The notes: a model not told the origin generated them from the letters alone. A stretch of 64,000 nt of DNA from Gammaproteobacteria bacterium (GCA_049698775.1 JBAVYM010000049.1:41958-105957); one strand, 5' to 3'; positions 24,164-48,531 are shown, counted from the first letter of the stretch. Numbers and translations: made by a program.

Positions 24164-24218
24164 GGCGCTGGTCGGTTAAGCATTAACATAAATGGAAACT
24201 GTGCCTATAGTTTAGTGC
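24164..24218 (+). promoter_or_regulatory. cassette-1 promoter block: conserved upstream box, -35 TTAACA, -10 TATAGT
   Basis: TTAACA 24183..24188, 17 nt, TATAGT 24206..24211, then 7 nt to ATG 24219. No SD present. 39 of 55 nt (hand count) are identical to 32387..32441. Confidence 0.5.
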
Positions 24219-24761
24219 ATGAAAAACCTGAGGGGCTGCAGGGGGTTCACTCTAATTGAGCTACTGGTATTGGTGGCGGTCATCGCTATTCTCGCCAGTA
24301 TTGCCATACCCAATTTCAGCGCCACCATCAAGGGCGACCGGGACATTTCGCAAATCAACACCCTGCTTTCGTCTCTGGATCTGGCCCGTAGCGAAGCCGT
24401 CAAAAGCGCCACCAACGTGAAAATTTGTGCCACATCGGATGACATCAACTGTACTGGCTCGTGGGCAGCCGGCTGGATGGTACTTTACGTCACACCACCC
24501 CCGAACGCTCATACGTTGATCCGCAGTTTTCCGGCACTGGCTGGCGGCAATACCCTGACAACCGCACCCGCCGGCACCACCAGTTTCACTTTCAGTTCCG
24601 GCGGCCTGGCCAACGCGGCTACTACATTCAAGCTCTGTGATACGCGCGGCTTCAAATACGCCCGATCCATTGACTTGAACGTCACTGGCCGGGCTGACGC
24701 CTCCAGTCAGCCTGGTTATTGGATTAATGGTACGCCGATGGCCGCCGGTGATTGTCCGTAA
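24219..24761 (+). CDS. fimU: GspH/FimT/FimU-family type IV minor pilin (cassette 1)
   Basis: 180 aa with class III signal MKNLRGCRG|FTLIELLV and a GspH-like body. Sits directly upstream of pilV. Confidence 0.8.
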   Translation: MKNLRGCRGFTLIELLVLVAVIAILASIAIPNFSATIKGDRDISQINTLLSSLDLARSEAVKSATNVKICATSDDINCTGSWAAGWMVLYVTPPPNAHTLIRSFPALAGGNTLTTAPAGTTSFTFSSGGLANAATTFKLCDTRGFKYARSIDLNVTGRADASSQPGYWINGTPMAAGDCP

Positions 24762-24820
24762 TAATTCAGCACGAGGGGTTAGTTAGTTAGAGGAATCAAG
24801 TTAGTTTTAAGGAGTGGGGC

Positions 24821-25357
24821 ATGAACAATAATCGAAACATCAGCGGTTCCCGCCGGCGCGCATCAAGCGCGGGCTTCAGCCTGCTTGAAGTCCTGATCGG
24901 ACTTGTGATCCTGTCGGTCGGCCTGCTGGGCATTGCCGCGCTGATGGGCACCACGGTCAAGAGCAACGACAGCGCCTACATGCGCACCCAGGCCACGGTG
25001 CTGGCCTACAGCATGATTGACCGCATGCACGCCAATCGGTTCACGGCCACGGGCGGCGCCAGCTCCTATGACGTGGCCATGCCCGCCACCGCCGCCACCA
25101 GCGATCCCACCACCTGCACCGGTCTCGGTGCCGGATGCAGTGGGGGCATGCTTGCAGCCTATGACGTAGGCCAATGGGAATATGACTTGGCCAAGCGCCT
25201 GCCCAACGGCATGGGTTCAATCACCACCACCACCGTGAACGGATTCACTCTGGTCACCATTACCGTGCAATGGAATGACAGCCGCGCACAAACCGGCTTG
25301 AACAGCGGTGCACCGGCAGCCGGTACTTTTACCCTGGCAGTGAGTTCATCGCTTTAG
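24821..25357 (+). CDS. pilV: type IV pilus minor pilin PilV (cassette 1)
   Basis: 178 aa with AG|FSLLEVLIGLVILSVGLLG and a PilV-typical MRTQA motif. Confidence 0.85.
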   Translation: MNNNRNISGSRRRASSAGFSLLEVLIGLVILSVGLLGIAALMGTTVKSNDSAYMRTQATVLAYSMIDRMHANRFTATGGASSYDVAMPATAATSDPTTCTGLGAGCSGGMLAAYDVGQWEYDLAKRLPNGMGSITTTTVNGFTLVTITVQWNDSRAQTGLNSGAPAAGTFTLAVSSSL

Positions 25358-25366
25358 GCCACTGTC

Positions 25367-47100: not shown

Positions 47101-47724
47101 ATCGTGTATTTCGGCACTGGCCAGCTTCTGGGTACACCGGACTTGAGCACCACCGGTACCCAGACTTTCTACGGTGTCTGGGACAAGCCGGGCTTGTCGA
47201 GCGTTCTCACGCGCAGCAATCTGGAGCAGCAAACCCTGTCCGCCCCCACGCCGGGTCCTGCCGGCACCACGGTGCGGACGGTGACCAGCAATACGATCAA
47301 CTGGAGCAGCCAATACGGTTGGTATGAAGACCTGTCCATTTCCGGCGAGCGCGTGGTCACGAATCCGCGGCTCGAGAACAGCGCGGTGGTATTCACCACC
47401 TACGTGCCTACCACCAGTAGTTGCGCGGTGGGCGGCGCCTCCTGGCTGCTGGCGGTCAATTTCAAGAACGGCGGCTCGTTCCCCAGTCCGGAACTGGACC
47501 TGAACGGCGACGGCAGCCTGAACTCTGGCGACCAGGTGGGCGGGCAGAATCCGGTGGGCCTGTACCTGGGAGCGGTGTATTCCGCGGCACCTACCGTCAT
47601 CTCGGCCAGTTTGGGCAGCGTAAAAGCTGTCAAACTGGTATCCGAATCCAGCGGCGCCATCAAGGCGGTCGGCCAGGCTGGTCCGCCCAGCCAGCGTCAA
47701 TCGTGGCGGGAAATTCAAAACTAG
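44194..47724 (+). CDS. pilY1: PilY1 tip-associated adhesin, cassette 3 (short form)
   Basis: 1176 aa. Same C-terminal propeller blocks (MLYVGANDGMLHAID, VYAGDLQGNLWKV). EF-hand-like loop DLNGDGSLNSGD at 47497..47532. Lacks the roughly 180-190-aa insertion of copies 1 and 2. Confidence 0.9.
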   Translation: MNRQVAVKVVFVKAGVATLAAVLTASIGVISLPAFAATPVVSISNIPLTLVAPAHPQVILAVPNSQSMDGDLSGAIMTGSGASSIPSQLGSSSSPVDFTVPAGFTPPVSGGIAGSSQPYTSVIGGNQVDNSPSRLNVAKSAIQAILDSFVGSTDFGLLTYNTGAPTLYNTWLYAMSNAGGFTFSNTNTPAPPLGEYIANPCYNIPSGNTVYTDCNSMKALLGANLLTMPYMLVQFSSDDPDINDVLYAGGEAPVCLVYGAVNPANPYTHYTLGDYNDGGITVTYGSNINACANTTGPTNAGFVPFQPQTMYMQRGFGYYTTATDNTGNLLLSLQTAGNNPTPAQIAATIAKFTPYLQPETNNTGSGEIKAVAVQSPIAGILKRAVAYYATNPPSSNGCPPQRYVIMITDGLPTEDLSGKNWPPLGSAAAQSSPNGYGVSATFNGDGSLNTTTDQALTDTIAQLAALKAAGVKTYIVGVGAGVDPALNPQAAATLTAMAMAGDTSNYYAATSPAQVALDMTAILSAIEAANMSTSSAAVNSTGLKAGAVAYQAQFTSADTPWQDWTGNLVAYPILANGTVSTTTPLWSSQTQLDLQSPANRIIATWDPAVSTGIPLEWCSSLCGAGSIDSSTALGLDLMTSPTDLLGSARLNYLRGVHSDEQQFAGGTFRNRSHVLGDIVDSNPLFVGPPNGPFQDPSYISFELAQASRAPMLYVGANDGMLHAIDPSTGNEKFAYVPNGVFTNLINLTKPTYNQNHQFFVDGSPTSGDVQFSDSSWHSILVGGLNAGGNSIYALDVTNPAAITSESALASDVLWEYSDPSGLLGLTYSQPFIARTNVTGSNFVVFFGSGYNNSDGNPYLYAVNAQTGTLLARINLCASVAPNPCNSGLPNGLSSPVALNSGGALSLPDDTVYAGDLQGNLWKVNISNSNPASWTVQLLFQARDSSGNPQAITVAPVVSLHPNFPRDTGTIVYFGTGQLLGTPDLSTTGTQTFYGVWDKPGLSSVLTRSNLEQQTLSAPTPGPAGTTVRTVTSNTINWSSQYGWYEDLSISGERVVTNPRLENSAVVFTTYVPTTSSCAVGGASWLLAVNFKNGGSFPSPELDLNGDGSLNSGDQVGGQNPVGLYLGAVYSAAPTVISASLGSVKAVKLVSESSGAIKAVGQAGPPSQRQSWREIQN

Positions 47725-47763
47725 GCGCAGCGAGCCCGGCGCTTGCTGCAGGAGGTTGGACAA

Positions 47764-48087
47764 ATGTCGAGAGCATTCAAACCCGTATTCATCGTGGCAG
47801 GTCTGCTCATGGCTGCTTGCCTGTGCTCCGGAGCGTTCGCGAGCTACGCAGTGCCCGATGAGAACATCGGGACCGGCACCATCCAGGCGGTGGACTATGT
47901 CAACCATACCGTTACTGTGGCGGGCCATGTGTACCGGATTTCCCCCAAGGCTGCCTACTCAGACAACGGCAAGAATGCCGGCGTCTTGCAACCCGGCGTG
48001 AAAATCCAGTTCACCTCGAATGGCCCGGTGAATAATCCCGGCTCGCGCATCGTCAATATCGTTGTGCTTCCTCCGGCATCGGACTAA
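47764..48087 (+). CDS. small secreted protein at the pilY2 position (cassette 3)
   Basis: ORF 47743..48087; ATG 47764 follows GGAGG. Signal peptide present. Core IQAVDYVNHTVTVAGHVYRISPKA is a divergent paralogue of the other two. Confidence 0.65.
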   Translation: MSRAFKPVFIVAGLLMAACLCSGAFASYAVPDENIGTGTIQAVDYVNHTVTVAGHVYRISPKAAYSDNGKNAGVLQPGVKIQFTSNGPVNNPGSRIVNIVVLPPASD

Positions 48088-48096
48088 GATTCCGGC

Positions 48097-48531
48097 ATGT
48101 CAAATAGCATTCATGAACCATGCAGCCGCGGTTTCTCACTCATCGAGCTGATGGTCGTGGTGGCGATCATCGGCATCATTGCCGCCATCGCTTATCCGTC
48201 CTATGAGCGCTCGGTGCTTAAGTCCCACCGTTCGGATGCCGAGAACCTGCTTACCAACGACGCCCAGATCCTGGAACGCTGCTATACCCAGAACTTTTCG
48301 TACAGCGTGGCCTGTACCCCGAACTTGGCCACTTCCACACAATACCGCTATTACACCCTGACCTCACCGGCCGCTTCCATTACCTCGAATGCGTACGCAC
48401 TAAGAGCCACAGCCGTTGGTAATCAGTTGAACGACACCGATTGCAACAGCTTCAGCATCAATAACACCGGCCAAAAGACCGCCCTGAATTCCGGCGGCAC
48501 CGACAATTCCACCGTCTGCTGGAACCAGTAA
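48097..48531 (+). CDS. pilE: type IV minor pilin PilE (cassette 3)
   Basis: 144 aa with CSRG|FSLIELMVVVAIIGIIAAIAYPSY. The last 99 nt differ from cassette-2 pilE at only 3 positions (hand count). Confidence 0.85.
   Translation: MSNSIHEPCSRGFSLIELMVVVAIIGIIAAIAYPSYERSVLKSHRSDAENLLTNDAQILERCYTQNFSYSVACTPNLATSTQYRYYTLTSPAASITSNAYALRATAVGNQLNDTDCNSFSINNTGQKTALNSGGTDNSTVCWNQ

Follow-up and report, generated by a model that had tools for sequence, protein, structure and literature searches.

Three tandem paralogous minor-pilin/PilY1 cassettes with homogenized pilE genes in uncultured Gammaproteobacteria, candidate alternative tip modules for a common type IV pilus

Introduction

Pilus tip complexes decide adhesion targets, phage access, and surface sensing. 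In the Pseudomonas aeruginosa model, PilVWXY1 constitutes the core of the complex, and FimU and PilE connect this core to the major pilin (PMC5979040); the operon is activated by the regulator AlgR, for which two binding sites lie in the fimT-fimU interval (PMC4064291). In Myxococcus xanthus, three sets of minor pilins and PilY1 have been proposed, and two of them shown, to act as alternative priming/tip complexes on the same machine (PMC7541494, PMC8833165, PMC9109919). There, cluster_1 alone or cluster_3 alone supports motility, and the authors stated that a cell may build two or three machines and pili differing in their priming/tip complexes (PMC7541494, PMC8833165). Differential regulation of these sets has been described (PMC9109919), multiple minor-pilin/PilY1 sets occur in several other bacteria (PMC7541494, PMC8833165, PMC9109919), and a 2026 survey arrived at an average of two PilY1 proteins per myxobacterial genome (PMC13190605). 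Here, we analyze a 64,000-nucleotide stretch of DNA (hereafter, the window) from a metagenome-assembled genome (MAG) labelled Gammaproteobacteria bacterium (GCA_049698775.1, JBAVYM010000049.1:41958-105957), in which three cassettes of this minor-pilin/PilY1 operon type stand head to tail.

This genome belongs to a clade of uncultured Gammaproteobacteria in which diverged tip modules, two or three in number, are kept together at one place. At a probability of roughly 0.65, we favor the explanation that the array comprises three old, chromosomal paralogues of the Pseudomonas-type minor-pilin operon that would furnish alternative tip modules to a common pilus fiber.

Results

Gene content of the array

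Positions 24219-48531 of the window hold 21 uninterrupted open reading frames (ORFs) on the plus strand, which make up three cassettes spanning 24219-32209, 32442-39889, and 40574-48531 with the gene order fimU/pilV-pilW-pilX-pilY1-pilY2-like-pilE (Table 1). The FimU proteins of cassettes 1 and 3 and the cassette 3 FimT match Pfam GspH plus N_methyl, and N_methyl is present in all PilV, PilW, and PilE proteins. Each cassette encodes matches to Pfam PilW (1e-28 to 1e-31), to PilX_N together with PilX, and to the NCBIfam PilV equivalog TIGR02523 above its cut-off. The three PilE copies carry ComP_DUS (2e-18) plus N_methyl, with a globular domain resembling that of P. aeruginosa PilE (PDB 4NOA, E 1.5e-7). 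A small secreted ORF lies between pilY1 and pilE in all three cassettes; its match to Pfam PilY2 is weak and misses the gathering score (E 3e-4 to 6e-4).

An earlier note on this DNA had listed 21 intact same-strand ORFs in three cassettes, with PilY1 proteins of 1383, 1432, and 1176 residues; ORF listing and translation reproduced both counts, and the cassette 1 protein is identical, and thus of the same length, to NCBI's own call on a 138,994-bp contig of a MAG labelled Gammaproteobacteria bacterium (MGB9429802.1, 1383 aa). For the cassette 2 PilY1, a search for an identical record returned none. Its statement that cassette 2 lacks a GspH/FimU-type gene is borne out by the Pfam search, which found none there. 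Of the 15 class III signal sequences that it had counted, 12 show the canonical prepilin motif G↓F-x-x-x-E, but the three PilX proteins possess a prepilin-like G↓F/I-V-L leader that lacks Glu5. The pairing of fimT with fimU in cassette 3 holds insofar as both are GspH-family genes by Pfam, but the fimU start is most likely at 41275 rather than 41236; translation from the in-frame ATG at 41275 yields a normal 6-residue leader, MKQHSG↓F.

In an all-versus-all comparison, cassette paralogues shared 46-65% amino acid identity, PilE excepted at 83-89%. Pairwise E-values lie between 1e-10 and 0 throughout, so that chance similarity is not at issue. DNA identity between cassettes is 58-71%, rising to 85-90% in pilE, and the longest exact run common to two cassettes measures 42-71 nt and always falls within pilE.

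Cassette number and synteny in relatives

The array lies between the acyl-CoA dehydrogenase gene and gshA. A copy-number survey of this locus, which the earlier note had named as a check, returned three cassettes in three other, independent assemblies (GCA_049591455.1, L079; JGI 3300054705, L080; ENA ERZ1761204, L084) and two in two more (ERZ25039501, L082; GCA_021816765.1, L083); L002 and L081 are partial arrays. For the clade, an array of two or three cassettes is the norm here. In a contig scan, which yielded L001 and L002 as the first relatives, a second PilY1 within 10 kb was present at only 3 of 71 PilY1 loci from other taxa, and a metagenome scan found no close relative of the cassette 1 PilY1, the best match being 48% identical.

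The same comparison bears on whether the triple array is genuine. The source is a MAG contig, and short-read assemblers can be misled by repeated genes; against this stand the DNA identity of just 58-71%, the lack of any exact run beyond 71 nt, with the long runs all confined to pilE, and the identical order and flanks in independent NCBI, JGI, and ENA assemblies. Short exact runs and independent recurrence together exclude the assembly artefact against which the earlier note had cautioned; we regard such an artefact as vanishingly improbable and conclude from the sequences that the array is not one.

What lies between cassettes 2 and 3 varies among genomes: fimT and REP-like repeats (repetitive extragenic palindromic; REP) in the window, no gene and just a 224-bp gap in L079, and a gene for a GGDEF protein (diguanylate cyclase) in L080 (15193-16524), L084 (15109-16452), and L002 (~7059-8396). 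In these three arrays, the GGDEF gene is preceded by an AlgR-like repeat pair of the type found at the cassette heads.

Old duplications under purifying selection

A neighbor-joining tree of PilY1, built from 1013 ungapped columns with 200 bootstraps, separates two forms. The short-form clade, to which cassette 3 belongs, is supported at 100%, and its sister is the PilY1 encoded at L004, a locus with a single cassette (99%). Support for the long-form clade is likewise 100%; within it, proteins of the cassette 2 type from all genomes form one group (98-100%), the cassette 1 PilY1 of the window is sister to this group (95%), and the first cassettes of L079, L080, and L084 form a PilY1 clade of their own (100%) that is not orthologous to cassette 1 of the window. 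Across genomes, PilV, PilW, PilX, and PilY1 cluster by cassette type and not by genome.

For the PilV, PilW, PilX, and PilY1 proteins that the three cassettes of the window encode, the ratio of nonsynonymous to synonymous divergence (dN/dS) relative to the closest orthologues is 0.11-0.37. Cassettes 1 and 2 fall at 0.24-0.37, and the cassette 3 PilY1 is the most conserved type (76-84% identical between genomes, dN/dS 0.11-0.12). The grouping by cassette type and these ratios indicate, on comparative grounds, that the duplications are old and that every cassette is maintained by purifying selection. The history likely ran from one ancestral cassette to a long/short pair, followed by repeated gain and loss of long-form copies.

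Homogenization of pilE

The pilE genes follow the opposite pattern. PilE copies are 80-100% identical within a genome (mean 86) and on average 63-64% identical between genomes, whatever their position in the array; in the PilE tree, copies cluster by genome with 97-100% bootstrap support, the reverse of the PilY1 tree. Within the window, synonymous divergence (dS) of pilE is 0.26-0.46 (0.26-0.42 for the cassette 1 copy against the other two), compared with 0.8-2.0 for the other cassette genes. High similarity begins at the mature N-terminus and ends at the stop codon. L083 has two pilE copies without a single nucleotide difference (100% identity), next to PilY2-like genes that are only 53% identical. 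This pattern indicates that pilE copies undergo gene conversion.

Among the relatives, the first pilE of L084 (6439-6861) has its nearest counterpart in the last pilE of L080 (23458-23907), at 88% identity; the converse pair, the last pilE of L084 (23413-23853) and the first of L080 (6376-6798), is weaker, at 78% identity and 50% bootstrap. It looks as if the copies of these two arrays had been exchanged between positions.

Architecture of the cassette heads

Each cassette head, and the region upstream of fimT, carries a direct pair of 9-bp repeats resembling both the AlgR consensus CCGTTCGTC (PMC4064291) and LytTR sites (Table 1). The pattern CCRYTNRTC-N12-RCGYYNRTC, with repeats 21 bp apart, occurs exactly four times in the window, at all heads including that of fimT, against 0.2 expected, a figure that speaks to specificity and not to discovery since the pattern was written after the sites had been seen. 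This architecture is conserved at cassette heads of the relatives, where 12 of the 14 matches to the repeat pair stand at such heads or upstream of the inserted GGDEF gene, with a background of ~1 per 68 kb. Given the resemblance to the AlgR consensus and the AlgR activation of the P. aeruginosa operon, one putative LytTR/AlgR-type regulator is likely common to all heads.

Downstream of the repeats, the promoter-like sites of cassettes 1 and 2 are the joint best matches of a promoter scan in the array (10/12). The arrangement TATAKT-N7-ATG is found three times in the window, only at the heads of cassettes 1 and 2 and of the cassette 3 fimU, against 0.23 expected, and no Shine-Dalgarno sequence is present at these three heads. 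With a -10 box 7 nt before the ATG and no Shine-Dalgarno sequence, leaderless transcripts are predicted at three of the four heads.

Loss of fimU from cassette 2

The first four codons of the cassette 2 pilV, ATGAACGCGCAA (MNAQ), equal the start of the cassette-2-type fimU of L080 in 12 of 12 nt, and the promoter upstream matches as well. The cassette 2 head thus looks like the scar of a fimU deletion in which the fimU-type promoter was kept and the four fimU codons became fused to the pilV leader. Cassette-2 fimU is absent in the window and L079 and kept in L080 and L084; cassette-2 pilE is absent in L079, L080, and L084. Having lost its own fimU, cassette 2 must borrow FimU or do without. 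The chimeric leader of its PilV (32442-32540) numbers 33 residues; translation from a further in-frame ATG, at 32487, would shorten it to 18. The possibility that the cassette 3 'fimT' represents a FimU displaced from cassette 2 was ruled out, as its product is 34-48% identical to every FimU compared and has no orthologue in related arrays.

PilY1 proteins

The C-terminal propeller of PilY1 is recognized by Pfam T4P_PilY1 in all three proteins (2e-48 to 4e-45), and residues 840-1318 of the cassette 1 protein match PDB 3HX6 (E 4e-51). The proteins differ mainly in the N-terminal, vWA-like half, in which those of cassettes 1 and 2 possess an insert of ~190-250 aa that is absent from cassette 3. 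Pfam VWA matches to these N-terminal halves are sub-threshold (E 0.025-0.065). An AlphaFold2 model of cassette 1 PilY1 residues 1-860 (predicted local distance difference test score, pLDDT, 74) has a confident core for which all top Foldseek matches in the PDB are vWA domains, with weak scores (E 0.012-0.1, probability up to 0.99); the insert is modeled as partly beta-rich and partly disordered.

Near the C-terminus, a 12-residue EF-hand-like loop is kept in all three proteins (DINGDGLLNSGD, in cassette 3 DLNGDGSLNSGD; D-x-N-x-D-G-x-x-N-x-x-D). The calcium-site and EF-hand comparisons concern cassette 1 residues ~1099-1115 and 1308-1319 and the equivalent positions in cassettes 2 and 3.

Flanking regions and other features

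The array is flanked on the left by guaA, guaB, xseA, an M23 peptidase gene, metX, a CitMHS transporter gene, and a gene for an AidB-like acyl-CoA dehydrogenase, and on the right by gshA and, further on, ychF, pth, rplY, prs, ispE, and lolB. The G+C content over the array is even at 0.58-0.64 and similar to that of the flanks. With this composition and with housekeeping genes on its flanks, horizontal transfer of the array is unlikely.

Elsewhere in the window, two adjoining paralogues (4373-5998 and 6546-8420) both join an M56 peptidase domain of the BlaR1 type to a TonB C-terminal domain. Positions 55961-56008 duplicate exactly, over 48 nt, the 3' end (58417-58464) of a tRNA-Met gene located 2.4 kb away (58418-58494); the stretch between has a low G+C content of ~0.50 and two ORFs (56159-56845, 56855-57463) for which no Pfam match was found, and further partial copies lie upstream (55748-55820, 54736-54777, 55936-55977). 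Small elements, one or several, appear to have inserted at this tRNA gene. Inverted repeats of the GTGGGAGCG type (50289-50305 and 50877-50893) bracket an ORF resembling IS200/Y1 transposases (50366-50857, Pfam Y1_Tnp 7e-10); together with the similar, REP-like palindromes at the cassette 2-cassette 3 junction, this arrangement suggests a system of REP elements and a REP-associated tyrosine transposase (REP/RAYT).

Table 1 Features of the three-cassette array, in window coordinates (c1, c2, c3: cassettes 1 to 3)
Feature	Position	Strand	Evidence or remark
c1 head, AlgR-like 9-bp direct repeat pair	24145..24173	+	CCGCTCGTC-N12-GCGCTGGTC
c1 promoter-like site TTAACA-17-TATAGT	24183..24211	+	ends 7 nt before fimU ATG
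c1 fimU, GspH-family minor pilin, 180 aa	24219..24761	+	Pfam GspH 3e-18 plus N_methyl
c1 pilV, 178 aa	24821..25357	+	NCBIfam TIGR02523 98 bits, cut-off 52
c1 pilW, 374 aa	25367..26491	+	Pfam PilW 4e-29
c1 pilX, 192 aa	26488..27066	+	Pfam PilX_N and PilX
c1 pilY1, long form, 1383 aa	27111..31262	+	Pfam T4P_PilY1 4e-45; PDB 3HX6 4e-51; vWA-like N-terminal half with insert of ~180 aa, C-terminal beta-propeller
c1 PilY2-like small secreted protein, 124 aa	31388..31762	+	weak Pfam PilY2 5e-4, below cut-off; signal peptide by eye
c1 pilE, 142 aa, GTG start	31781..32209	+	Pfam ComP_DUS, N_methyl; PDB 4NOA
c2 head, AlgR-like repeat pair	32368..32396	+	CCATTTATC-N12-GCGTTGGTC
c2 promoter-like site TTAACA-17-TATAGT	32406..32434	+	ends 7 nt before ATG; homologous to c1 fimU promoter
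c2 pilV, 196 aa, long chimeric leader	32442..33032	+	TIGR02523 108 bits
c2 pilW, 368 aa, start chosen at 33034	33034..34140	+	Pfam
c2 pilX, 184 aa	34156..34710	+	Pfam
c2 pilY1, long form, 1432 aa	34755..39053	+	Pfam; orthologues in L079, L080, L084, L081, L082
c2 PilY2-like small secreted protein, 118 aa	39089..39445	+	weak Pfam match
c2 pilE, 142 aa	39461..39889	+	Pfam
REP-like palindromic repeats, variable c2-c3 junction	40090..40320		palindromes of GTAGGAGCGGTG... type
AlgR-like repeat pair upstream of fimT	40500..40528	+	CCGTTCATC-N12-ACGCCTGTC
c3 extra GspH-family minor pilin 'fimT', 176 aa	40574..41104	+	Pfam GspH 5e-17
c3 head, AlgR-like repeat pair	41201..41229	+	CCCTCCGTC-N12-ACGCTCGTC
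c3 promoter-like site GTGAAA-16-TATAGT	41240..41267	+	ends 7 nt before ATG 41275
c3 fimU, 182 aa from 41275	41275..41823	+	Pfam GspH 6e-13; longest ORF from 41236
c3 pilV, 180 aa	41830..42372	+	TIGR02523 above cut-off
c3 pilW, 380 aa	42375..43517	+	Pfam
c3 pilX, 189 aa	43565..44134	+	Pfam
c3 pilY1, short form, 1176 aa	44194..47724	+	Pfam
c3 PilY2-like small secreted protein, 114 aa	47743..48087	+	weak Pfam match
c3 pilE, 144 aa	48097..48531	+	Pfam

Discussion

Taken together, a model for the array emerges. By homology with P. aeruginosa and M. xanthus, the PilV-PilW-PilX-PilY1 core module of each cassette would prime the assembly of type IVa pili in the inner membrane before taking its place at the tip as an adhesin. 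With one priming complex per pilus, a cell expressing several cassettes would make mixed pili of the same shaft and different tips, two bearing a long-form PilY1 with the vWA-head insert and one the short form. PilE would link the tip module to the major pilin, and recurrent gene conversion, by keeping PilE near-identical within each genome, would leave all modules compatible with one fiber while the modules themselves diverge. Given the connector role of PilE in P. aeruginosa, the homogenized PilE fits three tip modules on one shaft; divergent tip genes beside a homogenized adaptor form a natural contrast that supports the model of PilE as the link between tip complex and shaft. The control region is alike at every cassette head: a pair of 9-bp repeats of AlgR/LytTR-like sequence is followed by a promoter of the sigma-70 type, and the predicted transcription start coincides with the start codon. 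It follows that the cassettes are predicted to be transcribed separately, probably in answer to one FimS/AlgR-type regulator.

Three other explanations were weighed. Short-form cassette 3 might be the only working primer, the long-form cassettes being redundant spares or in decay. Cassette 3 is indeed the most conserved (PilY1 76-84% between genomes, dN/dS 0.11-0.12), its PilY1 is sister to that of a single-cassette locus, cassette 2 lacks fimU here and in L079 and pilE in L079, L080, and L084, and no cluster_2 proteins were detected in laboratory-grown M. xanthus (PMC7541494). The core genes of cassettes 1 and 2 nevertheless are all intact, evolve at dN/dS 0.24-0.37 relative to their orthologues, and retain their own promoter heads, and their orthologous types recur in at least five other assemblies, which is not expected of decaying copies; we hold this explanation to be improbable. 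That the cassettes serve different filaments or machines, with different major pilins or a competence pilus among them, would accord with the several type IV filament systems of many bacteria, with the Pfam family of the PilE-type pilins being named after the DNA receptor ComP, and with a number of major pilins that cannot be read from the window. Yet pilE is homogenized within each genome while the rest of the cassettes diverges, which points to a single shared partner, one control architecture stands at all heads, and PilE matches P. aeruginosa PilE (4NOA). FimT-type DNA binding relies on a C-terminal GRxR motif, and none was found in the FimT-like protein. Different filaments are therefore quite unlikely.

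The array could also be a recombination-driven variation system, in which near-identical pilE genes act as portable homology through which cassettes are gained, lost, or swapped, with population-level variation in tip adhesins or phage receptors as the outcome. Copy number at the locus is two or three in relatives, the arrays of L079, L080, and L084 begin with a cassette that is no orthologue of cassette 1 of the window (95-100% bootstrap), pilE positions look swapped between L080 and L084, and the content of the cassette 2-cassette 3 junction varies between genomes. The array includes no recombinase, invertible element, or silent promoter-less copy, however, and the longest exact shared run is just 42-71 nt. 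The cassettes also differ by ~35-50% in amino acids, which argues for turnover over evolutionary time and not for programmed switching; a variation system is accordingly given little credence.

Alternative tip modules on a common fiber remain the explanation we favor, and several points weigh against it or narrow it. We infer the tip function, the common fiber, the identity of the regulator, and the leaderless transcripts from the sequence of an uncultured MAG; no major pilin, PilD, pilus machine gene, or FimS/AlgR homologue lies within the window, which is why 'one fiber' and 'AlgR-like regulator' stand as inferences. One regulator for all heads may mean that the cassettes are co-expressed and not switched, and the repeat pattern by which the heads were aligned was, as stated, drawn from the sites themselves. 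Cassette 2, without its own FimU, cannot be called fully self-sufficient. The MIDAS motif (for an adhesion site that depends on a metal ion) of the vWA-like half reads (G/P)-N-S-x-S-M-D, in which the first Asp of DxSxS is missing and the TDG motif is present. The calcium site of P. aeruginosa PilY1, D851-x-N-x-D-x-V-x-D859, is not conserved either; the 3HX6 segment DNNSDGVAD aligns to NSAGNLGSPVD in cassette 1, with cassettes 2 and 3 similar. With these altered motifs, the adhesin function may differ in detail.

The earlier note had read the array as an interchangeable-tip system. Intact cassettes with their own promoter-like heads, purifying selection, positional orthologues, differing PilY1 N-termini, and homogenized pilE are in keeping with that proposal, which the missing FimU of cassette 2 qualifies; by homology and from the evolutionary pattern, alternative tips on one fiber are plausible. 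A bolder version, a 'tip rack', is tentative and on balance unlikely: the gene-converted PilE adaptor would let any module fit one fiber and double as the homology for cassette duplication, loss, and exchange, and an AlgR-like loop with leaderless transcripts would raise the other tips when one is lost. If true, evolution would here have diversified pilus tips by a design that has not been described before.

Comparison with known systems

The novelty claimed in the earlier note is weakened. Alternative sets have been characterized in M. xanthus, two or three cassettes are usual in the clade, and the alternative-tip mechanism is an established idea, not new in concept; in literature text searches, we found no description of a tandem minor-pilin array, triple or otherwise, or of gene conversion in such operons. 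The array is of value for comparison and for evolutionary questions; alternative tips are already established by experiment in M. xanthus, and the organism here is uncultured.

The P. aeruginosa fimT/fimU-pilVWXY1Y2E operon is built from the same families in the same order, including PilE and the small PilY2-like ORF, and its PilY1 propeller (3HX6) and PilE (4NOA) are homologous to the array proteins. The likeness extends to the extra fimT-like GspH gene upstream of fimU in cassette 3 and to the AlgR-like box pair, which stands upstream of the first gene here, as two AlgR sites stand between fimT and fimU there (PMC4064291). The operon is present in one copy in P. aeruginosa and in three tandem copies here, of which cassette 2 is without FimU; the DNNSDGVAD calcium site of P. 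aeruginosa PilY1 gives way to the conserved EF-hand-like loop near the C-terminus, the start codon is placed at the predicted transcription start, and the long-form PilY1 carries its extra insert.

In Neisseria and Kingella, PilC1 and PilC2 likewise provide several PilY1-family tip adhesins per genome, two in that case, for the same pilus (PMC13190605). The adhesin gene alone is duplicated there, whereas here it is the whole minor-pilin set, and Neisseria varies expression through phase-variable poly-G tracts, none of which were noticed in the array.

The M. xanthus cluster_1, cluster_2, and cluster_3 match the array in multiplicity: three paralogous sets per genome, each with its own PilY1, in which a common C-terminal domain is joined to a differing N-terminal domain (PMC7541494, PMC8833165, PMC9109919). 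The array, too, holds at least two complete sets, and their PilY1 proteins diverge in the N-terminal domain. In M. xanthus, the clusters are described as separate loci with four minor pilins each and no PilE (PMC7541494, PMC13190605), and PilY1.1 and PilY1.2 bear DUF4114 heads, in contrast to the three vWA-like heads here. What sets the array apart from the known systems, and for which we found no paper, is the head-to-tail layout at a single locus, the presence of a homogenized PilE at the end of each set, and the one promoter architecture that the cassette heads share.

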